Shown here: positions 5,988-62,079 of the stretch, piece by piece
How the letters are laid out: every line of letters starts with the position of its first letter
Numbering within the stretch: the stretch's first letter is position 1
Assembly (NCBI GenBank): GCA_029233925.1
Contig: JARGOX010000013.1
Coordinates: 48,056-112,055, forward strand
Length of the DNA: 64,000 bases
From: Rhizobiaceae bacterium
GTDB taxonomy: Bacteria > Pseudomonadota > Alphaproteobacteria > Rhizobiales > Rhizobiaceae
Direction: 5' to 3'
Translations under genes and position numbers: made by a program
The notes under the pieces: generated by a model
What the model saw: the letters and a program-made list of their open reading frames with translations, nothing else
The model's database searches: none
Told to the model about the DNA's origin: nothing

Positions 5988-7058
5988 ATGAGCAGCTATC
6001 TGAGCCTCAAGGGCATCAACAAGAGCTATGGTGATTTCGTCGCACTGGACGATGTCAATCTGGAAATCAAAAAGGGCGAATTCGTCACCTTTCTGGGCCC
6101 GAGCGGTTCGGGCAAGACAACGACGCTGATGATCATCGCCGGATTCGAAAAGGCCACACGCGGTGAAGTCGAAATCGAGGGCCTGTCGCTTGCCGGTCTC
6201 GATCCGCAGGACCGCAATATCGGCATTGTATTTCAGAATTATGCGCTGTTTCCGCACAAGTCGGCGGTGGAAAATGTCTATTTCCCGCTGCAAATGCGCA
6301 AGGTCAAGCGCAAGGAGGGCATGCGCCGCGCAGAAGAAATGCTTGAGCTCGTCGGGCTGAAGGGTTTCTCGCACCGTCACCCGAAGGAATTGTCAGGTGG
6401 CCAGCAGCAACGTGTGGCGCTGGCGCGCGCGCTGGTGTTCGGACCGGACCTGTTGCTTCTCGATGAACCATTGGGGGCGCTGGACAAGAATCTGCGTGAG
6501 CAGATGCAGATCGAGATCAAGCGCATACAGAAGAAACTGGGCGTCACGACGATTTTCGTGACCCATGATCAGACGGAAGCGATGTCGATGTCGGACCGGA
6601 TCGTGATCTTTTCCCAGGGCAGCATTCAACAGGCCGATGCGCCGCTTGAAATCTATCACCGCCCGAAGACCCAATTCGTCGCCGACTTTATCGGAGAAAG
6701 CAATCTGCTTGCCGGAAAAGTCGTCGATGCTGCCAGCGGGATCCTGAGCAGTCCGGTTCTGGGCGACTGCACCTATTCCGGCGATCATCAGCCAGCCGTG
6801 GAAAACGGCCAGGATGTCACGATTGTCCTGCGGCCGGAGAATTTGACAATTTCACGCGATCCGATCGAGGGGAGGATGAATGGCAGGATGAAGATCGAAA
6901 CAATCGTCAATTATGGTGATAATGCCCTTGTCATCGGCCTGAGCGGTGGCGTGCCGATCCGTGTGCGCGTTCTGGGTGCGGATGTGGTTATCCTCAGTGA
7001 GGGTGATGAATGCTGTTTTTCCTGGGATGAAGACGCGATCTTCCTGGTTGCGGAATAG
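5988..7058 (+). CDS. ABC transporter ATP-binding protein, PotA-like, with C-terminal TOBE
   Basis: Walker A GPSGSGKT, signature LSGGQQQR, Walker B LLLLDEP, H-loop VTHD. Confidence 0.93.
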   Translation: MSSYLSLKGINKSYGDFVALDDVNLEIKKGEFVTFLGPSGSGKTTTLMIIAGFEKATRGEVEIEGLSLAGLDPQDRNIGIVFQNYALFPHKSAVENVYFPLQMRKVKRKEGMRRAEEMLELVGLKGFSHRHPKELSGGQQQRVALARALVFGPDLLLLDEPLGALDKNLREQMQIEIKRIQKKLGVTTIFVTHDQTEAMSMSDRIVIFSQGSIQQADAPLEIYHRPKTQFVADFIGESNLLAGKVVDAASGILSSPVLGDCTYSGDHQPAVENGQDVTIVLRPENLTISRDPIEGRMNGRMKIETIVNYGDNALVIGLSGGVPIRVRVLGADVVILSEGDECCFSWDEDAIFLVAE

Positions 7059-7068
7059 GGGCGTCGAT

Positions 7069-7470
7069 ATGGATGATATTGTAGATATTGCGGGCACTAT
7101 TGCCCATTTTGGTATTGGTGCACGGGCCTCGATCGCCACTGTGCACCAGGGAACAGGATATTTTGCTGTTACCCCCAAAACCCCTTATGACGGCGCACTT
7201 TCGACTGCGGAGCAGGCCGACCAGTTGTTTGAAAAAGCCGAGGCACGATTGTCGCAGATCGGCTCATCGAAACAGGGTCTGCTGTTTGTCGCCATCCTGC
7301 TGCGCGACATTGGTGATGTCGCGGCGTTCAACGAGCGCTGGGATGCCTGGGTCGCCGGCGTCACACCGCCTGCCCGTGCCTGTTTCGAGGCAAGGCTGGC
7401 CAATCCGGATATGAAAGTCGAGATGATCATGGTGTGCGCGGCTGCGCCTGCCAGTGATGTACAGGCATGA
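7069..7470 (+). CDS. RidA/YoaB-like enamine/imine deaminase family protein
   Basis: 133 aa from ATG 7069; FNERWDAW and PPARACFEARLANPDMKVEM motifs, including the family's catalytic Arg position. Confidence 0.85.
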   Translation: MDDIVDIAGTIAHFGIGARASIATVHQGTGYFAVTPKTPYDGALSTAEQADQLFEKAEARLSQIGSSKQGLLFVAILLRDIGDVAAFNERWDAWVAGVTPPARACFEARLANPDMKVEMIMVCAAAPASDVQA

Positions 7471-7749
7471 TGGAACTCAATTTCGCATGCCCAGCCAGTC
7501 CGCATGGATGATGTTTGATGTCAGTCGTAAAAGCGGCGGCCAGATTGACAGACATAGTGGTTAAGGCACGAATTTCGAACCGGAACCACACTCTATTCTT
7601 TTGACGGTTTAGACTGATTCATCAGAACATTGGATCGTGTTGCCTGTGTTTTTGGGTGCTCTCCATCCAAAGCCATCACGCGGATTGCCAATGCCTGGCC
7701 CGATTCATGCGTGCCAAGCCGGTTCATCCCTGCCAAAAAGGGACTGTCT

Positions 7750-8208
7750 CTAGTTTTCGAGACCGGCTGTAAAATTGTTCTTGACCCTTGCCACCCGGCT
7801 CAGGAGTGTCAGAAACAAACGCTGCTCTTCCTGCGACAGGTCACACAAAAGCTCCTCCTGGATCGCATCCAGACTGGGCTGTATTTCCTTCATCAAAGCC
7901 TGTCCCTCATCGGTCAGACTGATCAGATGGCCACGGGGTGATCTGTCGCTTCGGTCGCGACGCAACAGGCCCTTGCGTTCCAGCCGCCTGATAATGTCGC
8001 TGACCGTCATCGGGTCCAGCACAGCGGCGGCCGCCACGCCCTTTTGTTCCAGGTTTTCATTTTGAAGGACAACAATCAAAACCGACATTTGCGGCGCTGT
8101 CAGCGTGGTGTGCCCAAGTCGCTCATTGAAAAGGGCGGCGAAACGCTGTTGTGCCCGGCGAATCAAATGGGCCGGCTGATTATACAGAGGCAGTACGGCA
8201 GGCGTCAT
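7750..8208 (-). CDS. MarR family transcriptional regulator
   Basis: PAHLIRRAQQ, LTAPQMSVL, RLERKGLLRR, LTDEG winged-helix motifs. Confidence 0.9.
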   Translation of the reverse strand: MTPAVLPLYNQPAHLIRRAQQRFAALFNERLGHTTLTAPQMSVLIVVLQNENLEQKGVAAAAVLDPMTVSDIIRRLERKGLLRRDRSDRSPRGHLISLTDEGQALMKEIQPSLDAIQEELLCDLSQEEQRLFLTLLSRVARVKNNFTAGLEN

Positions 8209-8514
8209 TCAAAGTCCCGATTCATGTGCGCCATGATTGATGCGCTAGCGCTCTAAAAGCGACTATAGACTGCATTGCCGTGATGGCAAAGGCCAACAAA
8301 AGTTGAATTTTCCGTACGATATAACGATTTTTCCATGAATTTTTGCTGCAGCCTTGAAATTATCGCACTCTTTTGCTGCCTTTGTGCTTTGATGCAAGGC
8401 GGCCATGTCTTCGTGGTCAGACCTTCGCTGTCAGACGCCGCAGGACGAAGCATCCTTGCAAGGGGGTGCAGTTGAGCCGAAAGGTTCAGCGAAAAGCTTT
8501 CGATGGGAGAGACA

Positions 8515-11500
8515 ATGCCACATCATTTCAAAACAATTGCCGCTGTGTTGATTTCGGGACTGATGCTGGGATGGCTTGTCATGGGAATGGCCCAGGCGGC
8601 CGAGACGCGCCAGATCACCACTTTCAACAATGCCGATTTTTTTGGCTTTGATCTGCGGGCTGAAAAGAATGTCTCGCTGGATCGCTGCAAATCCTCCTGT
8701 CTGAGCGACCGCCAATGCCGCGCCTTTACCTATAATTCCAGCGCGCAATGGTGTTTTCTGAAATCCGATTTCAATCAACTCAACAGGTTCGAAGGGGCGA
8801 TTGCCGGCAAGGTGATCACGGTTTCGGCCAGTGACGCCGATATCGGCGCTGCCCCGCAACTGGCGTTTCTTTCGGAAAATCTATACGCTGAAGCCTCCCG
8901 TGAAGGCGCAGAGATTGCCAAAATGCAATCGGCCGATTATGGCCTTGCGGCCACGACAATTGCGGCTGAGGATGCCCTGGCGGCCGGAAATATGGCCTAT
9001 GCGCTGAATGCATTTCGCGTTGCCATTGCCATTGATTCGACCAGTGCTGACCTGTGGCTGGGCCTTGCGGAAGCCACATGGCGTGAACTGGCGCAAAATA
9101 ATTATCAAGGCTACGAAATGCAGCGAAAGGCCACATCGGCGGCGCTGAATGCCTATCAAAAATCACGTACGGTTGATGTGCGGGCCGATGCACTGGCAAA
9201 ACTGGCCAGAGCGCTGGCCATCCAGCAACAGTACCGGCCGGCGCTGGAAACCTACAAGGAAAGCCTTGCTCTGGTGGATTCACCGCGGGTACGCGCGGCC
9301 TTTCAGGACCTGTCTGCGCGCAAGGGGTTTCGCGTTGTTGAGCATACGATCGATGCCGACAGCGCATCGGCACGTGTCTGCGTGGTTTTCTCCGACCCGC
9401 TGGTCAAATCGGGCGTCAATTATGCGTCCTTTGTGACCATTGACGGCCGCGCCGCGAGCAGCGTTGTTGCCAAGGACAAGCAGATCTGCGCGGAAGGCCT
9501 GGAGCATGGCAGCGAATATCGGGTGTCATTGAGGGCGGGCCTGCCGGCGGACATCGGAGAAGTGCTCATGGCGCCGGTTACCATTACGGCCTACGTCCGT
9601 GACCGGTCTCCGACCGTGCGTTTTACCGGTGATAATTTTGTCCTTGCCAAGGCCGGTCGCAAGGGCATTCCGGTTGTCAGCGTCAATGCCGACAAGGTTG
9701 AAATCGAACTTTACCGAATCGGTGAACGGTCGCTTGCACCGCTGCTGGCCAAATCGCAGTTCCTGCGGCAGCTCGACGGCTATGATGCCGGCAATATTCG
9801 TGAAGATCTGGGTGAACTGGTGTGGCAGGGAGATCTGCTGACACAGAACGAGCTCAATGGCGAAACGGTCACGAGTTTTCCAATCGACGAAGCGCTTCCG
9901 CAGCGCGAGCCGGGTGTCTATGTGCTGATGGCGCGGGTGGCTGGTGAGACGCTGGATAACTGGAGCAGTCGGGCGACGCAATGGCTTGTGGTTTCCGATA
10001 TCGGCCTTTCTACCCTTGCCGGCAGCGACGGTTTGCATGTGTTTGCCCGTTCGCTCGATAGCGCCCTGCCGACAGCCGGTCTCAAGCTGACATTGCTGGC
10101 ACGCAACAATGAGATTCTGGGTGAGGCCATTACGGATGAAAACGGGCGGGCAAGCTTTGTTGCCGGTCTGATCCGTGGCAAGCAGGCTCTGGCACCAGCG
10201 GTCATGACTGCTGACAATGGCCGGGGCGATTTCGTCTTTCTCGATATGACCCGCGCCGGGTTTGATCTTTCCGATCGTGGCGTTTCAGGACGGCCGGCAC
10301 CCGGTCCGCTGGATATTTTCACCTGGACCGACAGGGGTATCTACAGGGTGGGTGAAACGGTGCATCTGTCCGCGATGATCCGCGATGACGAAGCCGAGGC
10401 AGTTTCCAACCTGCCTTTGACCTTTGTTGTGCTGCGCCCCGACGGCAAGGAAGACCGTCGCGTGGTGCGCACCGGCGGTGAGATTGGTGGTTACGGGTTT
10501 GACCTCGAGATACCATCCAATGCCATGCAGGGCGCCTGGAATGTCAGGACCTATGCTGATCCCAAGTCAAATTTTCTGAATGAAACGGCCTTTCTGGTCG
10601 AGGATTTCAGGCCGGACCGGATAGCCTTTGAGCTTGATCTGCCAAAGACCCCGCTGGAGGCCGATGGCATCGCCTCCGCAAGGGTTGATGGACGTTTTCT
10701 CTACGGCGCCCCGGCAGCCGGGCTTGCGGTTGAAGCCGAGTTGAAACTCAAGGCCGTGCGCGCGCGTTCCGAATTTCCCAAATATGTGTTTGGCCTGTCG
10801 GACGAGGACAGCATTGCTGCGCGGGTCAATCTGGCGAATGTGCCGCCCCTTGACGCCGAGGGTCTGAGCGATATTGCCATTGAACTGGGCACGCTGCCTT
10901 CCACCACCCACCCGCTTGAGGCGGAATTGACCGTCCGATTGAGTGAAGGCGGCGGGCGCGCTGTGGAGCGCACCGGCACCATGGCGGTGCGGCCTTCCGG
11001 CATGATGATCGGCATCCGGCCGGAGTTTGAAGACGGGCTCGTCGGTGAGAACACGACGGCGGCCTTTAAGGTGATTGCCGCCGGTCCTGATGGCACGACA
11101 CAGGATGCCAATGGGTTGAAATGGTCCTTGCTGCGCATTGAGCGCAATTATCAATGGTATCGGGAAGGCAATTCCTGGCGGTATGAGGCGGTCGAATTCA
11201 CCAGGCAGATCGCCGATGGCACCATCAATATCAATGCCGATGCGCCTGCCGATATCGCTTCTGCCGTGGGCTGGGGACGGTATCGCCTGCTGGTTGAATC
11301 GTCCGAGATCAACGGACCGGCAACCAGCGTTGAATTCAGTGCCGGCTGGTACGTCAGCGCGGCATCCACCGAGACGCCTGACGGCCTGGAAATTGCCCTC
11401 GATAAAGCGCTCTATCTGGTTGGCGAGACTGCGCAATTGCAGATATCTCCACGTTTTGCAGGCCAGGCGCTGATCACCATCGCCAATGACGGGCTGCGGC

Positions 11501-13989
11501 GGGTTCTGACGGCTGACGTTCCCGAAGAGGGTGCCGTCATTGGAATCCCGGTCGCCGACGATTGGGGTGCTGGCGCCTATGTCATGGTGACATTGATCCG
11601 GCCGGGGAGCGATGCAACAAGCCGCATGCCTTCACGCGCTGTCGGGATCCAGTGGTTGAGCGTCAGCCCGCAGGACCGGGCCCTTGAGGTCACCATGAAT
11701 GTGCCGGAGAAGATCGCTCCCAACAGCACGCTGACGATACCTGTTTCCGTGCGTGGGGCCGGCGCCCATGAAGAGGCACGCTTCACACTGGCGGCCGTCG
11801 ATGTGGGCATTTTGAACCTGACGGCTTTTGCGCCGCCCGATCCGCAGAACTGGTATTTCGGGCAACGCCGCATGGGCTTTGAGATTCGTGACCTCTACGG
11901 GCGTCTGATCGACGGTTCGCAAGGGGTGACAGGACGGATCCGCTCCGGCGGTGACGGGCCGGCGCTGGGAATCAAGGGCAGCCCGCCGAAGGAAAGGTTG
12001 GTGGCGCTCCATTCGGGCATCGTGACCCTGGACGATAACGGACAGGCACTGGTCAGCTTTGACATACCGCAGTTCAACGGCACGCTGAAACTGATGGCCG
12101 TGGCCTGGACGCAGAGCGGCGTCGGACAGGCCGACAGGGATCTGATTGTGCGTGATCCCGTGGTGATCACCGCGAGCCTGCCGAAATTCCTGGCACCCGA
12201 CGATGTCTCGCAATTGCGCTTTGACTTTGCCAATACGGATGGTCCTTCCGGTGAATACGCCCTTTCGCTGGATGTTGATCCGTCGCTGGATATCGACCGG
12301 TCCGGCTTTGGTCAAACGGTGTCGCTGGCGCGTGGACAGTCACAATCATTGATCATTGGCGTCAAGGCGGGACAGCCCGGGACTGCCGAGATCGCCATGC
12401 GGCTTACGGCGCCGGACGGAACAATCATCGAGAATGTCCAGCAGTTGGTAGTACGTCCGGCAACCCTGCCGGTGACGACGCGGCTGGAATTGCCGTTGGC
12501 GGCCAATGGCGGGTCCGCCATGATTGACCGCGAGCTGCTGGCCACCAGCTTTTTGGGCGGGGCCAGTGTCAGCATTGGCATATCGCACTCCAATATCGAT
12601 GTTCCGGGACTGCTGATGTCCCTTGATCGCTATCCCTATGGTTGCGCCGAGCAGACAACAAGCAGGGCTCTGCCATTGCTCTATCTCAGTGAGCTGGATG
12701 CGCCGGCCGCATTGCTGGAAGATCCTGGTCTGCGCAATCGGGTGCAATCAGCTGTCGAGCGTGTGCTTGCCTATCAGTCATCCGAGGGCAGTTTCGGTCT
12801 TTGGGGGCCGGGCGGCGGCGATCTCTGGCTCAACGCCTATGTCGGCGATTTTCTGACGCGGGCTCGCGAGAAGAATTACGCGGTTCCCGAACAGGCGATG
12901 CGCCTGGCGCTGGACAATCTGCAAAATGTCCTGTCCTACAACAATGATCTGGCTGACAATGGCGGGGGCATTGCCTATGCGCTCTATGTTCTGGCGCGCA
13001 ACAAACGCGCCTCGGCCGGTGATCTGCGCTATTATGCGGATGCGCAGCTGGATGCCTTCCGGTCACCGCTGGCCCGGGCACAGATTGCCGCTGCGCTGGC
13101 GCTTTATGGTGATGCGGAGCGGGCCCAGCGGGTCTTTGCTTCCGCCTATCGTCTGGCCGGATCATCACAATCCATCGCCCATGAAAACTACGGTTCACTT
13201 CTGCGCGATGATGCTGCCATGCTGGCACTTGCGGGTGAAAGCCGTCCGGTATCCCCGCTTTTGGGCGACATGGTCAAACTGGTCTCTGACCGGCAAATGA
13301 CAGCGCCTGCCAGAACCACCCAGGAACAGGCCTGGATGCTTCTGGCGGCCCGGGCGTTGCAGGACACGGACCGGAAGCTGTCGCTGCGGGTCGATGGCGA
13401 TATCATTGAAGGGGCCTATAGCAGCACTGTCGACGGGAGCGAACTTGCGGCGCGTCCGGTCCGCATCGAGAATGTTGGCGACCAACCGGTCACCGCCATG
13501 GTGACCAGCGTGGCGGCGCCGCTTGAACCGCTGCGCGCAGGCGGCAATGGATTTGAAATTGATCGCAAATACTACACAATGGATGGTGACGAGGTGGCTA
13601 TTGAGGCGGTCAAACAGAATGAACGATTTGTGGTCGTTCTCACCATCAGGCAGACCAACGCGCTGGGATCGCAGATCCTGGTGACGGATCTCTTGCCGGC
13701 GGGACTCGAAATCGACAATTCCCGACTGGTGGAAAGTGCAACGCTTTCGAATTTCTCCTGGCTGGGTGAAACCAATCCGGCCCACGTGGAGTTTCGTGAC
13801 GACCGGTTCGTTGCAGCCTTCGAGACCAGCGCCAATGACGTCGATAAAGCCATCCAGGTGGCCTATGTTGTGCGTGCTGTTGTGCCGGGCATCTATACCC
13901 ATCCGGCTGCGCAGGTGGAGGATATGTACCGGCCCGAGTTCGTGGCCCGCACTGCCACGCGCTGGATTGAGGTCAAGGCAGCGGATTGA
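8515..13989 (+). CDS. Bacterial alpha-2-macroglobulin with N-terminal PAN/apple domain
   Basis: About 1824 aa; signal peptide ending AQA; Cys-rich PAN module (C..SC....CRAFTY....WCFLK); TDRGIYRVGETV MG2 motif; thioester YPYGCAEQ (CAEQ at 12643-12654); coupled to pbpC. Confidence 0.93.
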   Translation: MPHHFKTIAAVLISGLMLGWLVMGMAQAAETRQITTFNNADFFGFDLRAEKNVSLDRCKSSCLSDRQCRAFTYNSSAQWCFLKSDFNQLNRFEGAIAGKVITVSASDADIGAAPQLAFLSENLYAEASREGAEIAKMQSADYGLAATTIAAEDALAAGNMAYALNAFRVAIAIDSTSADLWLGLAEATWRELAQNNYQGYEMQRKATSAALNAYQKSRTVDVRADALAKLARALAIQQQYRPALETYKESLALVDSPRVRAAFQDLSARKGFRVVEHTIDADSASARVCVVFSDPLVKSGVNYASFVTIDGRAASSVVAKDKQICAEGLEHGSEYRVSLRAGLPADIGEVLMAPVTITAYVRDRSPTVRFTGDNFVLAKAGRKGIPVVSVNADKVEIELYRIGERSLAPLLAKSQFLRQLDGYDAGNIREDLGELVWQGDLLTQNELNGETVTSFPIDEALPQREPGVYVLMARVAGETLDNWSSRATQWLVVSDIGLSTLAGSDGLHVFARSLDSALPTAGLKLTLLARNNEILGEAITDENGRASFVAGLIRGKQALAPAVMTADNGRGDFVFLDMTRAGFDLSDRGVSGRPAPGPLDIFTWTDRGIYRVGETVHLSAMIRDDEAEAVSNLPLTFVVLRPDGKEDRRVVRTGGEIGGYGFDLEIPSNAMQGAWNVRTYADPKSNFLNETAFLVEDFRPDRIAFELDLPKTPLEADGIASARVDGRFLYGAPAAGLAVEAELKLKAVRARSEFPKYVFGLSDEDSIAARVNLANVPPLDAEGLSDIAIELGTLPSTTHPLEAELTVRLSEGGGRAVERTGTMAVRPSGMMIGIRPEFEDGLVGENTTAAFKVIAAGPDGTTQDANGLKWSLLRIERNYQWYREGNSWRYEAVEFTRQIADGTININADAPADIASAVGWGRYRLLVESSEINGPATSVEFSAGWYVSAASTETPDGLEIALDKALYLVGETAQLQISPRFAGQALITIANDGLRRVLTADVPEEGAVIGIPVADDWGAGAYVMVTLIRPGSDATSRMPSRAVGIQWLSVSPQDRALEVTMNVPEKIAPNSTLTIPVSVRGAGAHEEARFTLAAVDVGILNLTAFAPPDPQNWYFGQRRMGFEIRDLYGRLIDGSQGVTGRIRSGGDGPALGIKGSPPKERLVALHSGIVTLDDNGQALVSFDIPQFNGTLKLMAVAWTQSGVGQADRDLIVRDPVVITASLPKFLAPDDVSQLRFDFANTDGPSGEYALSLDVDPSLDIDRSGFGQTVSLARGQSQSLIIGVKAGQPGTAEIAMRLTAPDGTIIENVQQLVVRPATLPVTTRLELPLAANGGSAMIDRELLATSFLGGASVSIGISHSNIDVPGLLMSLDRYPYGCAEQTTSRALPLLYLSELDAPAALLEDPGLRNRVQSAVERVLAYQSSEGSFGLWGPGGGDLWLNAYVGDFLTRAREKNYAVPEQAMRLALDNLQNVLSYNNDLADNGGGIAYALYVLARNKRASAGDLRYYADAQLDAFRSPLARAQIAAALALYGDAERAQRVFASAYRLAGSSQSIAHENYGSLLRDDAAMLALAGESRPVSPLLGDMVKLVSDRQMTAPARTTQEQAWMLLAARALQDTDRKLSLRVDGDIIEGAYSSTVDGSELAARPVRIENVGDQPVTAMVTSVAAPLEPLRAGGNGFEIDRKYYTMDGDEVAIEAVKQNERFVVVLTIRQTNALGSQILVTDLLPAGLEIDNSRLVESATLSNFSWLGETNPAHVEFRDDRFVAAFETSANDVDKAIQVAYVVRAVVPGIYTHPAAQVEDMYRPEFVARTATRWIEVKAAD

Positions 13990-47082: not shown

Positions 47083-48359
47083 TTGGTGAATATTGGCTGG
47101 TAATTCTCATCATTCTTGGCCTGATTGTTCTGTCCGGATTTTTTTCCGGTTCGGAAACGGCGCTGACGGCAGCGTCACGCTCGCGCATGCACCAGCTGGA
47201 ATCGAACGGCCAGGTCAATGCCGGAATCGTATCGCGATTGATTGACAGACAGGATCGGCTGATCGGGGCACTGCTGATTGGCAACAACATGGTCAATATT
47301 CTGGCGTCATCGCTGGCGACAAGTGTCTTTCTTGGGCTTTTTGGCGAAAGCGGCGTTGCCTATGCGACCATCGTGATGACGATACTGCTGGTTATTTTTG
47401 CCGAAGTCCTGCCGAAAAGCTGGGCCATATCGTCACCGGAGCGGGTGTCGATGGCGGTCGCGCCTGCAGTGCGCCTTTTTGTCATTGTCATCGGCCCGCT
47501 TTCCTCCGGGGTAAACTGGATCGTGCGTCAGTTGCTGTCGGTTCTGGGGATTACCCTGTCGACCGATACATCCATGCTCTCTGCACATGAGGAGTTGCGA
47601 GGCGCGGTTGCGCTGCTGCATCGCGAGGGGTCGGTGATCAAGGCGGACCGCGACCGGCTTGGCGGTGTTCTGGATCTGGGCGAGCTGGAAGTGTCGGATG
47701 TCATGGTGCATCGCACGACCATGCGGATGATCAACGCCGATGAGGATTCCGATGTTGCGGTCAGGCAGATTCTGGAAAGCCCCTATACGCGTATGCCGGT
47801 ATGGCGCGACGAGACGGACAACATCATTGGCGTCATCCATGCCAAGGATGTTCTGCGGGCTCTGGCTGGCGCCGGCGGAGATCGGCAGACCATTGATATT
47901 GTCAAGATTGCACAAAAACCCTGGTTCGTGCCGGACACGACAAATCTGAAAGATCAGCTCAATGCGTTTCTGCGGCGCAAGACCCATTTTGCCATCGTTG
48001 TCGATGAATATGGTGAGGTGGAAGGCCTGGTGACGCTGGAGGATATTCTGGAGGAGATCGTCGGCGACATTGCCGACGAGCATGACCTGGATATTCAGGG
48101 CGTCGTGCAGGAGGCCGATGGTTCGGTGGTTGTCGACGGGACGGTGCCCATTCGCGATCTGAACCGGGCGCTCGACTGGACCCTGCCTGACGAGGAAGCC
48201 ACCACCGTTGCCGGGCTTGTGATCCACGAATCACAGACCATTCCCGAAGAGCGTCAGGCGTTCACCTATCACGGCAAGCGGTTCATCGTGATGAAGCGGG
48301 TTAAAAACCGAATCACGAAATTGCGAATCAGGCCGGTGGAAGCCGAGCAAAAGGGTTAG
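47079..48359 (+). CDS. HlyC/CorC (CNNM + CBS) family transporter
   Basis: [26 protein letters not shown] pair (VMVHR, VVDEYG...EDILEEIVG), CorC_HlyC tail. Confidence 0.92.
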
Positions 48360-54506: not shown

Positions 54507-54806
54507 TCAGGCTGCAGCTTCAGCTTCAACCGACTTTTTTGCGATCTGACGCTTCAGCAGGCGAGCCCGCATGGACAGTTCTTTTTCATTTGCTTTGGCA
54601 AGAAATGCATCCAGACCACCGCGATGCTCCACTGTGCGCAGGGCAGCAGCGGAAATCCGCATGCGGAAACGCTGACCAAGAGCATCGGAGATCAAGGTCA
54701 CATTGCACAGGTTCGGCAAAAACTTGCGACGTGATCTGTTGTTTGCGTGGCTGACATTATTGCCCGACTGAACAGATTTGCTCGTCAATTCACAACTGCG
54801 GGACAT
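54507..54806 (-). CDS. rpmB: 50S ribosomal protein L28
   Basis: [10 protein letters not shown]...[19 protein letters not shown]...[10 protein letters not shown]. Confidence 0.96.
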
Positions 54807-54898
54807 GGGTTTCACCTTAAGTCTGTTGGCTTGCAGCAATACGTATCCGGTGCCGTGCCCCGGCCGCAGCTATCAGGCCTGTAAATGGAATTTTTGGT

Positions 54899-55070: not shown

Positions 55071-55739
55071 ATGGGCAAGATTTTCGAATACGGCCTTGAT
55101 GCGCCTCAGCCTGGAACCCTGTTGTTGTCTGCGGTGGCAGCATTCCTCTATCTCTTTATGGTTGCCGGCAAACCGTCCGCCCGCAGAACCGGTGTGAAGA
55201 CGCTGTCGGTGGCATTGCTGGCTGTTCTTTGCGTGCTGGTGGATGGGCCACTTGTCCTGACCTTGGCGCTTCTGGCCTGTGCCGCAGGGGACGCGTTTCT
55301 GGCGCAGGACGATGAAAGGGCATTCCTGCCGGGTCTGCTGGCCTTTCTTGTCGGTCATGTCCTTTTCGTCATCGTCTTCGTCAGCCGTGGCAATCTTGAT
55401 CTGATCATGGGGCAGCCGTGGCGCATCGTCCTTGGAGTCGTCATCATCCTGGCAGCGCTCGAGATGGGCCGCCGATTGCTGCCGGTCGCCGGCGAACTGC
55501 GCATTCCCGTGGCAATCTATATCGTAGTGATTGTTGCCATGGCCCTGTCTGCGCTGGCGGTACCGGGGTGGGGCGTTGCCGCCGGGGCCGCCTTGTTCAT
55601 GGCTTCCGACACGGTTCTGGCTGCACAAAAATTCCTGCTTGCCCCTGAAAAAAGTCCCTATTGGCGCGCTTCATTCGTCTGGATCAGCTATTATCTGGCG
55701 CAGCTGTTGATGACCCTCTCCGTGCTGGCGCTTGTCTGA
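55071..55739 (+). CDS. YhhN/lysoplasmalogenase family membrane protein
   Basis: KTLSV, GDAFL, FLPGLLAFLVGH, ALFMASD, YYLAQ motifs. Confidence 0.88.
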   Translation: MGKIFEYGLDAPQPGTLLLSAVAAFLYLFMVAGKPSARRTGVKTLSVALLAVLCVLVDGPLVLTLALLACAAGDAFLAQDDERAFLPGLLAFLVGHVLFVIVFVSRGNLDLIMGQPWRIVLGVVIILAALEMGRRLLPVAGELRIPVAIYIVVIVAMALSALAVPGWGVAAGAALFMASDTVLAAQKFLLAPEKSPYWRASFVWISYYLAQLLMTLSVLALV

Positions 55740-55748
55740 CGTGTAAAA

Positions 55749-55776
55749 GGGCCGTGTCCTGTTGTGCACACGGCCC
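55749..55776 (-). terminator. Terminator downstream of the TRAP operon (possibly bidirectional)
   Basis: Perfect 9-bp stem GGGCCGTGT / ACACGGCCC, followed by TTTT on the minus strand. Confidence 0.6.
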
Positions 55777-55866
55777 CGAAATGTCTGATCTCGATTTTTG
55801 CTGTCAGCCGGTGAGGCGTTGCGTCTCAGTTGTCAGGGATCACTTCACCGTTGACCTGGACGCAGG

Positions 55867-56967
55867 TCAATCGAGCTTGCTGTAGACTTCGTCCCAAAGG
55901 GCCTGTGCAAAGGCTTCACGATCGTGGCCGGTCCTGGCAATGATGCCCTGCCATTTTTCCAGCGCCGTGTTGAAGGCGTCGATCTGTTCGGCGTAGTTCT
56001 CCACCCCGATGTCGGCGGCGTAGTCGGCGATCAGTTCCCTGTCAGCGTCGGAAGGCGCCAGGGCTGCAACGAGGCTTTCGTCTCCCTGGTGAAACTTCAC
56101 GCCGGCAGCTTCGGCATTTTCGCGTGACTTTTCGGCCAGTGCATTCTGCCCAATCATCATGTCCGCCACGCCGTAGGTGATTTCCTTGAGCAGCAGTTTT
56201 TTGTGGTCGGCTTCGAGATCATTCCAGGTTTCAGTGCTGAGTGCCATGAGCGACATGGCGCGTACAGTGCCCAAGGGCGCTTCCGTGACGTTTGTCACAA
56301 TGCCCTGAAGGCCGTATGACGAATACCAGTCCATCGACGCGAGTACGCAATCGAGCTGGTTGCGTTGCAGCCCCTCGGCCATTTCGGGCGAGGGAATGTT
56401 CGACGGGATGGCGTTGAGGCGGCCCAAACGGGGGCCCATGATGCCCGTTGTCTTGACGCGCAGACCCTTAAGATCGGCGAGCGAAGCAACCGGTGTCGTG
56501 CATTGCAGCACAAATGGTGTGGTTGAATAGGCTCCGAATAACCGCGCTCCGGCATTGGCGTACTCCTTGACGCAATCGGGGCAATTGAGCAGCATGGCCT
56601 CATTGACTGCGCCTGCAATGGCGAAAGGGTCGGTGCCATACATTGCCATATTGGCAAAAATCACGGCTGACGGAATATCCGACGGATACCATTGCGGAAT
56701 CACCATCCCGGCATCAGCCACCCCGTCTTCTATTCCACCCAGAATGGCGCGTGCGCCAAGCAGTTGGCCGAGCGGAAAGGTGGTCCAGTTCATCTTGCCG
56801 TCCGTGGCTTTGGCGATGCGTTCGAACATCGGCTCCAGCGCGACGCTGAGCGAGGGATGTTGCGTTCCGACAAAGGCGGCGTATCTGTAATCCTTGGCAA
56901 GGCCCGGGCCTGCAGCAAGCCCCATGGCGATCGTCGCGGCGGTGATCGTCTTTATAAATTTACGCAT
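55867..56967 (-). CDS. dctP: TRAP transporter substrate-binding protein (DctP family)
   Basis: Signal peptide; FPLGQLLG, GIEDGVAD, LADLKGLRVK, EMAEGLQRNQLDC; RBS AGGAG. Confidence 0.87.
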   Translation of the reverse strand: MRKFIKTITAATIAMGLAAGPGLAKDYRYAAFVGTQHPSLSVALEPMFERIAKATDGKMNWTTFPLGQLLGARAILGGIEDGVADAGMVIPQWYPSDIPSAVIFANMAMYGTDPFAIAGAVNEAMLLNCPDCVKEYANAGARLFGAYSTTPFVLQCTTPVASLADLKGLRVKTTGIMGPRLGRLNAIPSNIPSPEMAEGLQRNQLDCVLASMDWYSSYGLQGIVTNVTEAPLGTVRAMSLMALSTETWNDLEADHKKLLLKEITYGVADMMIGQNALAEKSRENAEAAGVKFHQGDESLVAALAPSDADRELIADYAADIGVENYAEQIDAFNTALEKWQGIIARTGHDREAFAQALWDEVYSKLD

Positions 56968-56989
56968 GATTGTCCTCCTGTATGATGCG

Positions 56990-58300
56990 TCAGTTTCCAA
57001 CCTGGTTGGGCAGGAATAGTGAAATTTCCGGAAATCCGATGAGAAGGCCCATGATGATCAATTCGCACAGCAGGAACCACGTCACGCCGTGGAATATCTC
57101 GCCCAGCGCAATGCGGTCTCCGAGCGCACTTTTTACCACATAGACATTCAGTCCCACGGGCGGGGTCAGCAGACCGATTTCAATGTATTTGACAACGATG
57201 ACCCCAAGCCAGATCGGGTCGGCCCCAACGGAATGGAAGACCGGAAGGATCACCGGTAGACTGATCAGCATGACACCCAGTGGATCCAGGAACATGCCCA
57301 GAACCAGGAACAACAGCGAGGCGGCAAGCACCAGTATCAAATAATTGTCGCTGAAATCGCTGAAGGTGCGCGCAAGGGTCGATGATATTCCTGTCAGGGC
57401 AAGGAATTTTGTGAAAATGATCGCGCCCATGGCAATAAAGAATATGCGTGCCGTGCTTGTCAGGGTTTCGATGACGCTATCGCTGATCAACGCCCAATTC
57501 AGCCCACCGATAAAGGCTGCGGCAACCAAAGACAGAAGCACACCAAGGGCGGCTGCCTCGGTGGCGGTGACCACGCCCCCGTAGATGCCGCCAAGAACAC
57601 CGAAAAAGATGACGGGCAAGGGCCAGATCGGAATCAGGCTTTCCCATCTTTCACGACGCCCGGGCCGGATGTCGAGGCCGGGCGCCAGCGCAGGATTGGC
57701 GATACAGCGCAGCATGATCATCGCGACATAGACAAACAGGGTGAGCAATCCCGGCAGGATGCCGGCAATCAGCATCTTGGCAATCGAGACCTCGGCAAAA
57801 ATTGCGTAGAGGATCATCAGCAGGCTGGGCGGGATCAACGCGCCGAGTGTGCCGGCGCTGGCAACGCAGCCGGCGGCAAGTTTGCGGTCATAGCCTGCGC
57901 GCAGCATTTCGGGCACCGAAAGCCGCGCCATGGCAGCAGCGGTCGCCATGCTGGAGCCGGACATTGCGGCAAAGCCCGCCGCCGCGACATTGGTCGCAAC
58001 GGCCAGGCCACCTGGCATGGTTCCCATCCACAGGCGGGCCGCGTGGTAGATCTTGGTCGCCAGTCCGGAGCGCTGGATGATGCTGCCCATCAACAAAAAC
58101 AGCGGGATGGCCGACAGGGACCAGCTTGCAGTGAACTCGAAAGGTGTCGAATCGAGGATGCTGACGGTTGGGCGCAGGCCGATCTGAAAATAGATTCCGG
58201 CAGCACCGACAAGCCCCAGCGCAACACCCACAGGAAACTCCAGCGCAACCAGCACAAGAACGAGCGCGAAGCCACCGGCGCCGATCCACAGACCATCCAT
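56990..58300 (-). CDS. dctM: TRAP transporter large permease (DctM)
   Basis: AIPLFLLMG, SGSSMATA, GTLGALIPPS, TATEAA, GLLTPPVGLN; start taken at MDGLWIG. Confidence 0.92.
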   Translation of the reverse strand: MDGLWIGAGGFALVLVLVALEFPVGVALGLVGAAGIYFQIGLRPTVSILDSTPFEFTASWSLSAIPLFLLMGSIIQRSGLATKIYHAARLWMGTMPGGLAVATNVAAAGFAAMSGSSMATAAAMARLSVPEMLRAGYDRKLAAGCVASAGTLGALIPPSLLMILYAIFAEVSIAKMLIAGILPGLLTLFVYVAMIMLRCIANPALAPGLDIRPGRRERWESLIPIWPLPVIFFGVLGGIYGGVVTATEAAALGVLLSLVAAAFIGGLNWALISDSVIETLTSTARIFFIAMGAIIFTKFLALTGISSTLARTFSDFSDNYLILVLAASLLFLVLGMFLDPLGVMLISLPVILPVFHSVGADPIWLGVIVVKYIEIGLLTPPVGLNVYVVKSALGDRIALGEIFHGVTWFLLCELIIMGLLIGFPEISLFLPNQVGN

Positions 58301-58301
58301 G

Positions 58302-58823
58302 TCAAATGCCCTCCATTGAAGACGTGTACGTCGGTGAAGACTTTTGCGGGGGCTTTTCGTTCTGCAAAAAGCGCAGGGCATTGCGCAGGGCGAGCAAGGT
58401 GAAGGCCAAGGCAACGGCCCAGCGTCCGGGCCAGACGAGGAAGTATCCCGTCGAAGTTTCCCAGATTTCGCCGCGCAGGGTCTTGTCCCACGCCTCTTCA
58501 AAAGACAGCCATGCCACCAGACCAAGACAAATGGCGATGACGGCAAAGCTGATGCGCCGTATCGCGTGGCGGATGTGATCAGGAAGCATGGAGGTGAAAA
58601 GATCGACGCTGATATGGCCCTCAGACTTTTCCGCATAGGGCAGCGCGCAGAATACGACTGCGACCATGTACCAGGCCGAAACGAAGGTAATGGTCTGCAA
58701 TTGCGACACAACACCAAGAAGTCGAAGAACAACCTCCAGCGTGACATGCCCCAGCATCAGAACCAGCCCGGCAATCGCAACGGCCAACAAGGCCCTGTCC
58801 AGGACCGTCAGGATCCTTGCCAT
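58302..58823 (-). CDS. dctQ: TRAP transporter small permease (DctQ)
   Basis: Four TM segments, GHISVDLF, WPGRW; RBS GGAGAGG. Confidence 0.88.
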   Translation of the reverse strand: MARILTVLDRALLAVAIAGLVLMLGHVTLEVVLRLLGVVSQLQTITFVSAWYMVAVVFCALPYAEKSEGHISVDLFTSMLPDHIRHAIRRISFAVIAICLGLVAWLSFEEAWDKTLRGEIWETSTGYFLVWPGRWAVALAFTLLALRNALRFLQNEKPPQKSSPTYTSSMEGI

Positions 58824-58884
58824 TTATTTCCCTCTCCCAGTTGCCAATCAACCGAACAACGGTCTTCCGTCATTTCGCGTCTCA

Positions 58885-58913
58885 TTGACTATAATTGCCG
58901 TAATAATTATTAT
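58885..58913 (+). promoter_or_regulatory. Sigma70-type promoter for the marR gene
   Basis: TTGACT-N17-TATTAT, near consensus; the -10 lies inside the 18-bp box. Confidence 0.55.
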
Positions 58914-58918
58914 AATAA
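58901..58918. promoter_or_regulatory. Candidate operator, copy 1: TAATAATTATTATAATAA
   Basis: Identical to 60993-61010; contains the overlapping 12-bp palindromes TAATAATTATTA and TTATTATAATAA. Confidence 0.75.
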
Positions 58919-58925
58919 ATTGATA

Positions 58926-58956
58926 AAATCAAGCTGACAGTGTATCAGCTTGATTT
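58926..58956. repeat. Perfect 12-bp inverted repeat in the dctQ-marR divergent region
   Basis: AAATCAAGCTGA-CAGTGTA-TCAGCTTGATTT. Confidence 0.8.
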
Positions 58957-59026
58957 CGCCCTTCCTTGGCTCCATCCTGGTTCCCCGGGGACGACGCCAA
59001 TCAACATCACCCAGAAGACGGTTGAT

Positions 59027-59545
59027 ATGCCTGCAGAAACCACCGAGATACCGAAGCCGGAACCCGAATGGATGCCCTCTGCAACGCTCGGCGAGGCCTT
59101 GCCGGTGCGGCTTTTGCGCGCGCGTGAAGCGATCATGCAATTCTACAGGCCGCTGTTCCAGGCGACCGGCATCACGGAGCGGCAGTGGCGCGTTCTGCGC
59201 AATCTCTTTGACGCACCATTTCTTGAACCGTCCGAACTCGCCGTTCGTGCTTTCATGCAGCCGCCGAACGTATCGCGGGTGCTGAACGAACTTTCCGCCT
59301 TGAATTACGTCACCCGTGTTGCCTCCGGCAAAGACCAACGCCGGGCGCGCATTGCCCTGACGGAAACCGGACGCGCAGCCACCGTGCGCATAGGGCGCCA
59401 TATCGAAGCGCGCACCACGGAGCTTTTGAAGACACCGGAAGCGGCGGAATTTGCCCGGCTCGGCGAACTGCTGGAGATGGTCATCGACATGCCGCAGAAA
59501 TATCCGCGTCTGACCGTTGCTACACATCAGCCGCCCGGCCCATAG
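59027..59545 (+). CDS. MarR family regulator, HpaR-like
   Basis: LLRAREAIMQFYRP...ITERQWRVLR...DQRRARIALTETG pattern matches the HpaR subfamily as I recall it. Confidence 0.88.
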   Translation: MPAETTEIPKPEPEWMPSATLGEALPVRLLRAREAIMQFYRPLFQATGITERQWRVLRNLFDAPFLEPSELAVRAFMQPPNVSRVLNELSALNYVTRVASGKDQRRARIALTETGRAATVRIGRHIEARTTELLKTPEAAEFARLGELLEMVIDMPQKYPRLTVATHQPPGP

Positions 59546-60972
59546 GGGGACGTCCACTCCAACTCTTTCGGTCCGATCTTTTTCTCGATGCATCGCCCGG
59601 CGGCATAACCGGCAATTTCTCCGGTCAGGGTGGTCCAGGGGAAGTTCCGCATGACCATGAAGATCGTCTCATAGCTGAAAGACAGGGACGCGCCGGCCAG
59701 CAGCAGGTTGTCGATCTTTTTTGGCAGGAAGCAGCGGTAGGGCACTTCGAATTCATAGGGCGTATAGGTGTCCCAGAAAAACAGCTTTTTCATCGGATGG
59801 GTCACGGCATCGCGAAAGCGGTGGCCATTGCGCGCATCGTCTATGGTGAAGACATGTTCACCGATCGGATGGCGCCCGTCGCGCACGCCGACATAACGGC
59901 CAATACTGCCGATGCGCGCATTGTCGAAACCGGGGACATATTTGCGAAGGAACCGCGCCTCCGCATCAACATAGCTGCGCAGCAGGCGGGTTGCGGTTGA
60001 ATTGTCTTCGCCACTTTCGTCCATATGCAGATTCAGTTCATAGGGCACATTTTGCCACAGACAGTAGCTCCCGTCGGCTGACATGGGGCTCATATCAAGG
60101 GTCGGGTGGCCGATATACATGCTGGCATAAATATGCGCGCCCTGCATCGTTGGCCGATAGAGTCCTTCAGGGATATCGCCTGCAGCACGGGCCTCGGCGA
60201 TGACTTTTTGCAGCAAGGGGTCGTCGGCCTGTTGTTGATGGCGCACAAGAGATGGCAGATCAACGCCATGCATCGTCCAAAGCAGCCCGCCTGGCACAGG
60301 CCGGTGAACGCCATCCCATTGTGCTGTGTCGGGCTGGCCACCACCACCGGAGATATACGGCACGCCCGCACTGGCAGCGAGCTGGCCGGTGCCCGATCCC
60401 TCAATGAAGATCCGACCGGTGATGGCGAAGCGACCGCTGTTGTTTTCCACGACGATCGCACGGATGTGTCCGTCGCCGTTGCCCGGATCGACAATGCAGT
60501 CAACAAAGCGCGTGTCATAGAGGGCGAAGACGCCCGCCTCGTCCAGCATTTGGGACATGACGCTTCCCGATCCCTCCGGATTGAAGGAGAGACGGATAAA
60601 ATCGTCGCCGGGGCTTTTCTTGCGTTCATAGTGCGACAGGGGGTTGCCAGCCCAATCGGCATGAGAGGTGTTGTCGGCGCGGTATATGTAACCGTGGGCG
60701 TCAAACCGCTCCATCAGCTCGGTGTGAATGCCGCCAATGCCTTCCGATGCATGGCCCTGAAGACCCGACGTGTGAACGCCTCCCGGCGCGTCGAGCTTTT
60801 CAACCACAATGACGCTGGCACCCATCCGGGCGGACTTGAGCGCTGCTGCAAAGCCGGACGGTCCGGCGCCGACAACAACCACGTCGGCATCATAGGATAC
60901 GGGCACGTCAGCGGCCATCGGGATAATGGATTTCTCTCCAGTGGCTAGCTGATTTTCGTCTGACATTGGCAT
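59527..60972 (-). CDS. FAD-dependent oxidoreductase (FAD_oxidored/PF12831-like), function unknown
   Basis: DVVVVGAGPSGFAAALKSARMG, GGVHTSG, FIEGSGTG, GVRDGRH, VPYRCFLPKKIDNLLLAG, GEIAG; RBS GGGAGA. Confidence 0.87.
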   Translation of the reverse strand: MPMSDENQLATGEKSIIPMAADVPVSYDADVVVVGAGPSGFAAALKSARMGASVIVVEKLDAPGGVHTSGLQGHASEGIGGIHTELMERFDAHGYIYRADNTSHADWAGNPLSHYERKKSPGDDFIRLSFNPEGSGSVMSQMLDEAGVFALYDTRFVDCIVDPGNGDGHIRAIVVENNSGRFAITGRIFIEGSGTGQLAASAGVPYISGGGGQPDTAQWDGVHRPVPGGLLWTMHGVDLPSLVRHQQQADDPLLQKVIAEARAAGDIPEGLYRPTMQGAHIYASMYIGHPTLDMSPMSADGSYCLWQNVPYELNLHMDESGEDNSTATRLLRSYVDAEARFLRKYVPGFDNARIGSIGRYVGVRDGRHPIGEHVFTIDDARNGHRFRDAVTHPMKKLFFWDTYTPYEFEVPYRCFLPKKIDNLLLAGASLSFSYETIFMVMRNFPWTTLTGEIAGYAAGRCIEKKIGPKELEWTSPYGPGG

Positions 60973-60992
60973 ATTCTCCCCGCTGCTTTCTC

Positions 60993-61010
60993 TAATAATT
61001 ATTATAATAA
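60993..61010. promoter_or_regulatory. Candidate operator, copy 2: TAATAATTATTATAATAA
   Basis: Identical 18-mer 20 bp upstream of the oxidoreductase start. Confidence 0.75.
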
Positions 61011-61302
61011 GTAATATTGCGCAAGCCCAATCGACAACTATCTTGCAAGGCCGTTGGCATCTGCTGGGAATAGGGGCTTGATCAGCGTTGTGGCGGTGGT
61101 GGAAAACGCTGCCGCTGCCGGGGATATCTGCCCCGGTTCGCCAGCCCGCTTTGCCGGACACTGTCTGCGTTGGCCCGTGGAAAAACAAAGGGGCCGGGCA
61201 ATCAAGCCTCAGCTCTGTTGATTTGTGCGGGAATTGATGAGGGGATTATCGCGGCCATGAAGCGTATGGCCGCCTTCCATTGTCGTATGGGCCGGCTGCG
61301 CT

Positions 61303-62079
61303 CTAAAAGCTGTCCTTGCGACGGCGGATCTCGGCGAAGACATCACTGTCTTCTGCGTCCGGCATATGGAGGAGCGCCCGGATTTTCGGATCGTCTGCCC
61401 GCAGAAAGGGGTTGGTTTCCTTCTCGATGCCGATGGTGGTCGGCAATGTCGGTTTGCCAGCCGCCCGCAACGCGTGAATTTCCTCGGCTCGTGCCATCAG
61501 CTTTTCATTTTCCGGGTCAATCGTCACGGCGAAGCGCGCATTGGCTTCGGTATATTCATGGCCGCAATAGACGACCGTCTCATCGGGCAATGCCGCCAGT
61601 TTCTGCAGGGACTGGTGCATCTGCAGGGGGGTGCCCTCGAAGATGCGTCCGCAACCCAGCGCAAACAACGTATCTGCCGTAAAGGCGGTGGCCGCCTCGG
61701 GCATGTAGTAGCAGATATGACCCAATGTATGGCCGGGCGTCTCGATCACTTCAACAGTATGATTTGCGAATTCGAAGGTCTGGCCACCGACCACTGTTTC
61801 GTCGACTTCGGGAATTTTGTCAGCTTCTTTTTGCGGGGCGATGACCTTCGCGGAAAATCTGGATTTCAGTGCAGCGATGCCTTCGACATGATCAAGATGA
61901 TGGTGGGTGACCAGAATGTGGCTCAAGGACCAGCCGGTGCGCTTCAGCGCCGAAAGGATGGCCGCTTCCTCCGGTGCGTCAATCGACGCGGTTGCGCCCG
62001 TTGCCGGGTCGTGTATCAAAACCCCGAAATTGTCACTGCGGCACGGAAACTGTTCTATCTGCAAACGGGTCAAATTCAT
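61303..62079 (-). CDS. gloB: Hydroxyacylglutathione hydrolase (glyoxalase II)
   Basis: DNFGVL, THHHLDH, TPGHT, DTLFALGCGR, CGHEYT, EKETNPFLR. Confidence 0.94.
   Translation of the reverse strand: MNLTRLQIEQFPCRSDNFGVLIHDPATGATASIDAPEEAAILSALKRTGWSLSHILVTHHHLDHVEGIAALKSRFSAKVIAPQKEADKIPEVDETVVGGQTFEFANHTVEVIETPGHTLGHICYYMPEAATAFTADTLFALGCGRIFEGTPLQMHQSLQKLAALPDETVVYCGHEYTEANARFAVTIDPENEKLMARAEEIHALRAAGKPTLPTTIGIEKETNPFLRADDPKIRALLHMPDAEDSDVFAEIRRRKDSF

Follow-up and report, generated by a model that had tools for sequence, protein, structure and literature searches.

What would a bacterium do with five genes that lie as a compact islet between two core genes, and how did they come to be there? 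The question is raised by a stretch of 64,000 nucleotides from a Rhizobiaceae bacterium (positions 48,056 to 112,055 of contig JARGOX010000013.1, assembly GCA_029233925.1), which we call the window. The islet encodes a TRAP transporter (dctQ-dctM-dctP), a divergent MarR-family regulator and a single oxidoreductase that depends on flavin adenine dinucleotide (FAD). Our reading, to which we give a probability of roughly 0.65, is that these genes form a horizontally acquired accessory catabolic cassette in which the transporter would import an organic anion, the regulator would respond to it and the flavoenzyme would carry out its first conversion. The five genes are the following.

55867-56967, minus strand: dctP, TRAP solute-binding protein, 366 aa with a signal peptide; PF03480 at 54.7 bits and a match to NF037995.
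56990-58300, minus strand: dctM, TRAP large permease, 436 aa; PF06808 at 281 bits and TIGR00786 at 300 bits, above the cut-off.
58302-58823, minus strand: dctQ, TRAP small membrane subunit, 173 aa, at the head of the dctQMP operon; PF04290 at 58 bits.
59027-59545, plus strand: marR, HpaR-like MarR-family regulator, 172 aa; PF12802 at 43 bits and PF01047 at 37 bits.
59527-60975, minus strand: FAD oxidoreductase of family PF12831, 480-482 aa; 215.1 bits over residues 31-473.

All five genes had been named in the first-pass annotation of this DNA, and the open reading frames (ORFs) together with the Pfam and NCBIfam matches place every one of them as listed. The Q, M and P profiles match three adjacent and nearly abutting genes, which is the DctPQM type of TRAP transporter. 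In the ORF listing marR is divergent from dctQ, and the FAD gene converges on marR so that the 3' ends overlap by 19 nt at 59527-59545, as had been noticed. The FAD gene probably starts at the ATG at 60969, because both the Shine-Dalgarno spacing and the alignment to the homolog of XB_MAG305 favor this codon. For marR, alignment with homologs points to the ATG at 59027, and the GTG at 58940 is an unlikely start. The ORF listing, Pfam and NCBIfam also agree with the earlier statement that the islet holds no ring-cleavage, coenzyme A (CoA) ligase or electron-transfer gene, and no Rfam family was found in or beside it.

What would join the three transcription units into one regulon lies in their promoters, where three features were located.

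58901-58918: box 1, TAATAATTATTATAATAA, predicted MarR operator in the dctQ-marR spacer, where it overlaps the -10 region of each of the two divergent promoters.
60993-61010: box 2, TAATAATTATTATAATAA, predicted MarR operator at the FAD gene, where it covers the -10 region of the promoter, 18-24 nt ahead of the start codon.
58920-58932: second palindrome, TTGAT-AAA-ATCAA, 1 bp from box 1, which includes the -35-like TTG of the dctQ promoter.

The box is an A/T palindromic sequence found upstream of both dctQ and the FAD gene, a 12-bp perfect palindrome within an 18-bp identical repeat. None of 100 shuffles matched it, and these two exact copies are the only ones in the whole 6.1-Mb genome. In the spacer between dctQ and marR, promoter-like -10 hexamers of both strands fall within reach of box 1 and overlap it, and read on the strand of dctQ and the FAD gene the box includes a perfect TATAAT. 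We aligned seven promoter regions oriented toward the FAD gene or dctQ, taken from the window, XB_MAG305, Oceanicola and Mesobacterium; the regions of Vannielia hardly differ from those of Oceanicola. A TTG is invariant in the alignment, as is an AATAATT.T core 19 nt after it, while the surrounding sequence diverges. At box 2 the core AATAATT(A/G)T and the TTG 19 nt upstream are kept in XB_MAG305, Oceanicola, Vannielia and Mesobacterium, and box 1 is conserved in the first three of these, with TAATAATTATTA (window) and AAATAATTATTT (XB_MAG305) as the palindromic core. Related boxes also stand upstream of the FAD gene at two further loci (L053 and L100), each with a MarR homolog after the FAD gene. 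MarR repressors that act by blocking RNA polymerase and also control their own gene usually have such an arrangement. The operator-like box that had been proposed to tie the islet together is thus present in exact copies with a core conserved in distant cassettes, which predicts co-regulation of dctQMP, marR and the FAD gene through a site that MarR would bind. In Oceanicola, Vannielia and XB_MAG305 the spacer between marR and dctQ keeps the second palindrome as TTGATCTCATCAA or TTGATCTTATCAA, and this palindrome may be a second regulator site or a part of an extended operator.

How the islet came to its place can be read from its flanks.

54507-54839: rpmB, flank.
55071-55739: yhhN, flank; PF07947.
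55740-61302: inserted segment of 5563 bp, from the yhhN stop codon to the gloB stop codon (convergent core genes).
55749-55776: GC-rich hairpin, GGGCCGTGT, a 10-nt loop and ACACGGCCC, in the yhhN/dctP gap, read directly in the sequence.
61303-62079: gloB, flank; TIGR03413 at 330 bits.

The islet had been described as an insertion into the core genome with yhhN/rpmB and gloB as its flanks, and the congeners agree. The distance from the yhhN stop codon to that of gloB is 5-30 bp in nine of 12 genomes of the same genus, compared with 5563 bp in the window, and only one of the 12 (G007) carries the same islet at this junction. Two more congeners hold other cargo of 2.8 kb there: genes for an extracytoplasmic function (ECF) sigma factor, a glutathione S-transferase (GST) and a methyltransferase in one (L034, G004:C7:19800-24800), and a gene for a CHASE-PAS-GGDEF-EAL protein in the other (L035, G010:C2:600800-605500). 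The yhhN/gloB junction is a cargo hotspot in the genus. Mobile-element hallmarks are seen in none of the three cargoes, those of G004, G010 and the window. For the islet, all ORFs are explained by functions other than an integrase, in it and beside it; no tRNA gene lies in or beside it within 45-64 kb of the window; and boundary repeats were not found at its edges. The reported lack of a visible integrase or terminal repeats was therefore correct, and with no integrase, tRNA gene or boundary repeats the islet does not classify as an integrase-mediated genomic island. Its base composition is unremarkable. The simplest reading is that the segment was exchanged by recombination through the conserved flanks. 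The hairpin, a perfect 9-bp stem directly after the yhhN stop codon, stands at the left edge of the insert and may act as a bidirectional terminator that insulates yhhN from dctP. We consider it very likely that the islet is both a regulon and an insertion as described here.

Its phylogenetic distribution points away from the Rhizobiaceae. A survey of presence and absence in relatives, which had been proposed as a check, gave a patchy picture: orthologs of the enzyme were found in 2 of 17 genomes of the genus and in 2 of 401 sampled genomes of the family. In a quick maximum-likelihood tree, with support by the Shimodaira-Hasegawa-like approximate likelihood-ratio test (SH-aLRT) only, the enzyme of the window falls in a 7-member clade (SH-aLRT 99) and does not group with Rhizobiaceae. 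The other members belong to Roseobacteraceae (Mesobacterium, Maritimibacter), one unclassified metagenome-assembled genome (MAG) and two 'Burkholderiaceae' MAGs. The islet thus appears to be horizontally acquired and foreign to the Rhizobiaceae. Compared with G007 its nucleotide identity is 92-95%, equal to that of the flanks (93-98%), and the ratio of nonsynonymous to synonymous substitution rates (dN/dS) is 0.02-0.06 for dctP, dctM and marR; by these two values the islet is older than the split of the two species and has been kept under purifying selection.

The three units are also inherited together. The same five genes in the same order, with the FAD gene and marR converging and dctQ, dctM and dctP following on the other side of marR, are found in G007, XB_MAG305, Oceanicola sp. 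502str15 and a Vannielia MAG, as would be expected if the first-pass annotation was right to treat them as one module. Protein identity between XB_MAG305 and the window is 85% for the FAD enzyme, 78% for DctP, 84% for DctM and 68% for MarR, and the convergent overlap of the FAD gene and marR is kept in the relatives as 19 nt or 4 nt. In the host genome (G000), distant paralogs of MarR (36%), DctM (46%) and DctP (32%) are seen on another contig, about 35 kb apart (C30:45039-45377 and C30:80851-83183).

The flavoenzyme had been assigned to a largely uncharacterised family, and our searches of structures, homolog names and literature agree with this. It matches PF12831 over its full length (215 bits with a cut-off of 27) and carries the N-terminal motif GAGPSG, a GxGxxG FAD fold. 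There are 671 homologs at E <= 1e-10; the best 120 of the 671 are 64-97% identical, come from Alpha-, Beta- and Gammaproteobacteria, and are named 'FAD-dependent oxidoreductase' or 'hypothetical' only. Within the ortholog clade, which extends across the same three classes, identity is 58-98%. The next full-length cluster is 47% identical, with 90 clusters at E <= 1e-30 among 1.84 billion representatives at 50% identity, and the clade is tight and isolated. No solved relative was found in the PDB, where phmmer and a 20-sequence profile match just a ~40-residue N-terminal Rossmann segment, and no function, name or structure for the clade was found in literature searches on PF12831/FAD_oxidored, which turned up flavoproteome lists only. 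With the AlphaFold model, of moderate quality (predicted local distance difference test score, pLDDT, 72), Foldseek returns generic FAD-domain folds at template modeling (TM) scores of about 0.3-0.4, among them geranylgeranyl reductase-like proteins, class A monooxygenases, sarcosine oxidase and proline dehydrogenase. PnpA, HbpA and RslO9 are matched by the same model at TM ~0.4 and 10-14% identity, and the match to PF01494 covers the Rossmann segment only (22.1 bits). These weak matches probably reflect the shared FAD domain and would be silent on the substrate. A single dinucleotide-binding motif is present in the enzyme, together with a large number of invariant Arg and His residues, which would suit an anionic substrate.

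An inspection of the gene neighborhoods of the enzyme orthologs, at 80 loci with all ORFs clustered and a GC3-based filter against antisense ORFs in high-GC DNA, found no conserved enzyme partner; just transporters and regulators recur. The orthologs often stand beside one of four types of uptake system, namely DctPQM, TAXI-TRAP, NMT1-type ATP-binding cassette (ABC) and TctC, and beside a regulator of the MarR, IclR, LysR or GntR family. In Burkholderiales they are accompanied by TctC/Bug binding proteins and IclR regulators, in Bradyrhizobium and Rhodopseudomonas by an NMT1-type ABC system and MarR, and in the marine clade by DctPQM and TAXI-TRAP systems and MarR; a transporter of the major facilitator superfamily (MFS) is found beside the ortholog in one locus. 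One conserved enzyme with interchangeable importers supports the idea of import and conversion. Other neighbors are scattered (FAH-family hydrolases, LigXa-type Rieske oxygenases, Amidohydrolase_2, PhyH, MmgE/PrpD, CoA-transferases and acyl-CoA dehydrogenases) and fit organic-acid or aromatic catabolic islands without being diagnostic. In Pigmentiphaga daeguensis and Burkholderiales 67-32 (L115 and L119, ~6600-12800) three PF12831 paralogs in tandem alternate with TctC/Bug genes, with genes for IclR, PhyH and Amidohydrolase_2 as flanks, an array that looks like a local expansion of enzyme-plus-receptor pairs.

Clues to the substrate come from DctP and MarR. DctP belongs to a very rare clade: close relatives number about 7 among 5.8 billion proteins. 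The model of the protein (pLDDT 88) is nearest in fold to TRAP solute-binding proteins for aromatic acids: 4nap (D-Trp) and 4p56, the TarP complexes with coumarate, cinnamate, ferulate, caffeate and 4-hydroxyphenylacetate, and marine metagenome proteins 'specific for aromatic acid ligands' (5iga). Of these, 4nap binds a D-amino acid (PMC10443332). The next-nearest homolog of DctP, 38% identical, is found in Marinibaculum pumilum (L122 3461-11337) in a dctQM-dctP-dctP operon, with two LigXa-type Rieske oxygenases, a Glyoxalase-fold protein, an IclR regulator and a ring-hydroxylating dioxygenase as neighbors. DctP also has two invariant cysteines (NCPDC), which suggest a disulfide. MarR has the winged helix-turn-helix domain of its family, with PF12802 and PF01047 above their cut-offs in 172 aa. 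Its best NCBIfam match is HpaR (TIGR02337), and because the score of 99.9 bits lies below the equivalog cut-off of 121.2 we take it as HpaR-like and not as HpaR. The closest solved relatives are 2fbi, HpaR 7el2 and 5aip (E ~1e-15 for the last two), with CouR a weaker match; 5aip is presumably the 4-hydroxyphenylacetate-responsive NadR of Neisseria.

The fold neighbors of DctP and the relatives of MarR weakly point to an aromatic or cyclic carboxylate, a substrate class that we hold tentatively, at somewhat under even odds. The suggestion that the acid is possibly aromatic therefore gains some support, and what is imported and how it is converted continue to be inferred. The absence of ring-cleavage genes from the islet is no argument against an aromatic substrate because the host has such genes elsewhere in the genome, namely five of the intradiol-dioxygenase family and two for homogentisate dioxygenase, and the enzyme could be a funnelling step that brings an aromatic acid into existing ring-cleavage routes. 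For the same reason the accompanying proposal of conversion to a common metabolite is not required, as the enzyme could feed the ring-cleavage routes of the host instead.

Together these observations suggest how the cassette might work. It would have entered the genome probably by recombination at the yhhN/gloB cargo hotspot. We infer that a MarR dimer binds the 18-bp box over the -10 regions of the dctQMP, marR and FAD promoters and represses all three units until an inducer, an organic anion and most likely a cyclic or aromatic monocarboxylate, frees it from the DNA. DctP would capture the compound in the periplasm and DctQM would import it. The flavoenzyme would then catalyze in the cytoplasm the first, committing redox step, either dehydrogenation/oxidation or hydroxylation, and the product would enter existing host pathways, in central metabolism or in the ring-cleavage routes encoded elsewhere. 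A bolder version, which we consider doubtful, is that the PF12831 clade, with its hundreds of members, performs an undescribed single-step flavin-dependent conversion of a widespread environmental aromatic or heterocyclic acid, with the islet as its minimal sufficient regulon and a Lys-containing DctP of non-canonical recognition.

Several points weigh against the catabolic cassette. In DctP the canonical carboxylate-binding Arg, the residue of the TRAP salt bridge, is a Lys ('GLRVKT', residues ~168-173). The aligned position is Arg in the solved proteins 4nap, 4pgn, 4n6d and 4p56, where solved binding proteins have the motifs EIR/EVR/KIR, and Arg is kept in 5 of 6 more distant DctP homologs of 27-33% identity (motif 'G.(K/R)(I/L/V)R'). 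The chemistry of the ligand or its recognition may thus be atypical, and the Arg two residues before the Lys might substitute for the canonical one. DctP is only ~17-23% identical to the solved proteins, and further down the list of its fold matches stand proteins that bind ectoine, lactate and pyroglutamate. The model of the FAD enzyme is of moderate quality, and among the islet ORFs no re-oxidising or electron-acceptor partner is encoded. The A/T box could be mainly promoter sequence rather than operator. Finally, the core of the closest relatives adjoins AcnX, TauD and second-flavoenzyme genes that are not in the host, so that the enzyme may normally be one step of a longer route.

The alternative that fares best, though we still regard it as unlikely, changes only the compound. 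It may be non-aromatic, a cyclic imino or amino acid or an osmolyte such as hydroxyproline, pipecolate or an ectoine-like compound, and the flavoenzyme would then be an amine or imino-acid dehydrogenase. The AcnX/TauD context in relatives keeps such a substrate in play, the enzyme has fold matches to sarcosine oxidase and L-proline dehydrogenase, DctP has fold matches to the ectoine- and pyroglutamate-binding proteins, and the closest relatives are of marine origin. However, the best fold matches of DctP are aromatic-acid binders and MarR resembles HpaR and 5aip, whereas the enzyme matches are all weak (TM ~0.3-0.4) and lie in the shared FAD domain, and the AcnX and TauD genes are absent from the host.

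A second alternative arises from the larger clusters of the relatives. In Roseobacteraceae the same core lies within an 11-12-gene cluster. In Oceanicola and Vannielia the operon extends into genes for both subunits of AcnX (large and small), a TRAP binding protein of the TAXI type, a permease with Q and M fused, a second flavoenzyme (PF12831/DAO), a dioxygenase of the TauD family and a divergent LysR regulator; NCBIfam gave no equivalog-level names for the extension proteins of this larger cluster. The extended block is seen at L121 10220-18558 in Oceanicola sp. 502str15, and also at L123 and L124. In Mesobacterium the AcnX/TAXI block stands in for dctQMP opposite marR. By tblastn AcnX and TauD are absent from the host genome, and of the second flavoenzyme it has ~27% paralogs but no ortholog. 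On such grounds the islet might be an incomplete remnant of the Roseobacteraceae cluster that imports and modifies a compound without its being assimilated in the host. We consider this quite improbable, as the five genes are intact in two species at ~94% nucleotide identity with the low dN/dS given above, and both operator boxes are perfectly preserved. The FAD-MarR-DctQMP core of XB_MAG305 is likewise without AcnX, TauD and the second flavoenzyme (a TAXI-TRAP system adjoins it), and orthologs of the islet enzyme occur at many loci with none of the three. By tblastn the 327-bp and 127-bp edges of the islet hold no remnants of TAXI or AcnX genes.

Because neither AcnX and TauD nor an ortholog of the second flavoenzyme occurs in the host, the window carries the pared-down, minimal core of a modular cluster, and this core can persist alone because that of XB_MAG305 does without the same genes and that of the window is under purifying selection. 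The islet had been called self-contained, which must be qualified: the core is intact in the window and also in XB_MAG305, but among the closest relatives it forms one end of a larger cluster. The description as a minimal import-and-convert module is qualified in the same way: enzyme orthologs often stand beside uptake and regulator genes, as such a module would require, and by the larger cluster of the closest relatives the enzyme may normally be one step of a longer route.

MarR regulators often control detoxification genes, and the least likely of the three alternatives is that flavoenzyme and TRAP system act on different compounds, the former for instance as a MarR-controlled detoxifying or stress oxidoreductase and the box as shared promoter architecture: its perfect TATAAT at a fixed distance from the TTG may be conserved partly for promoter function, and 34 of 83 tree rows are labelled 'none', with no recognisable transporter within four genes of the ortholog, but a 12-bp perfect palindrome in an 18-bp repeat found nowhere else in 6.1 Mb, a FAD/marR overlap and adjoining uptake operon kept in five genomes of different families, and an importer that is not expected in a detoxification regulon all argue against it.

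The islet resembles several known systems in its logic and differs from each in its parts. The CouR/couAB/TarPQM system of Rhodopseudomonas palustris and relatives likewise combines a MarR repressor, a TRAP aromatic-acid importer and the first catabolic genes in an inducible unit, and TarP structures are among the closest folds to the islet DctP, although at an identity of only ~17-20%. The CouR system employs a CoA ligase and hydratase/lyase enzymes and has a CoA-thioester inducer, whereas the islet has a single flavoenzyme and no CoA ligase. HpaR of the hpa operon and the 5aip regulator, the best family and structure matches of the islet MarR, are ligand-released repressors on palindromic operators at promoters. 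In contrast to HpaR, which is associated with homoprotocatechuate (hpa) genes, the islet marR has dctQMP and the PF12831 enzyme as neighbors, with hpa meta-cleavage genes absent from its surroundings, and as far as tested the predicted operator is unrelated in sequence. The tcuRABC genes for tricarballylate utilisation in Salmonella combine a single transporter and a single regulator with a FAD dehydrogenase whose product is a central metabolite. They share the minimal import-and-convert logic, but TcuA belongs to PF00890 and needs the re-oxidising partner TcuB, uptake is by a secondary carrier and regulation by a LysR-type protein; no islet ORF has the domains of a TcuB-like iron-sulfur partner. 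The pobA/pobR and pcaK genes (4-hydroxybenzoate to protocatechuate) also comprise one flavoenzyme, one regulator and one uptake protein, and a funnel of the pobA type feeds ring-cleavage pathways encoded elsewhere, which the host owns. PobA is a class A monooxygenase of PF01494, and the islet enzyme, of PF12831, has weak fold similarity to class A monooxygenases (TM ~0.4). PF12831 itself is a broad and largely unannotated collection, in which the islet enzyme belongs to one tight clade. The homarine homABCDER operon was considered as well and set aside, for it consists of other genes (those for a FAD-binding HomA and its partner HomB, for a peptidase and for an aldehyde dehydrogenase), with no mention of a TRAP system or MarR (PMC13236597).

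Cassettes of an importer, a repressor and a first enzyme are a familiar bacterial route to a new nutrient, and as a system the islet is ordinary. The yhhN/gloB junction offers a small example of a recombination hotspot that swaps cargo without mobile-element hallmarks. The value of the islet is that of a tool: it presents the smallest form of the setting of this flavoenzyme, with one transporter, one regulator and two identical operators, for a clade that is repeatedly linked to four kinds of organic-acid uptake system. A ligand common to DctP and MarR would name the substrate and would thereby annotate hundreds of genes in soil and marine Proteobacteria.

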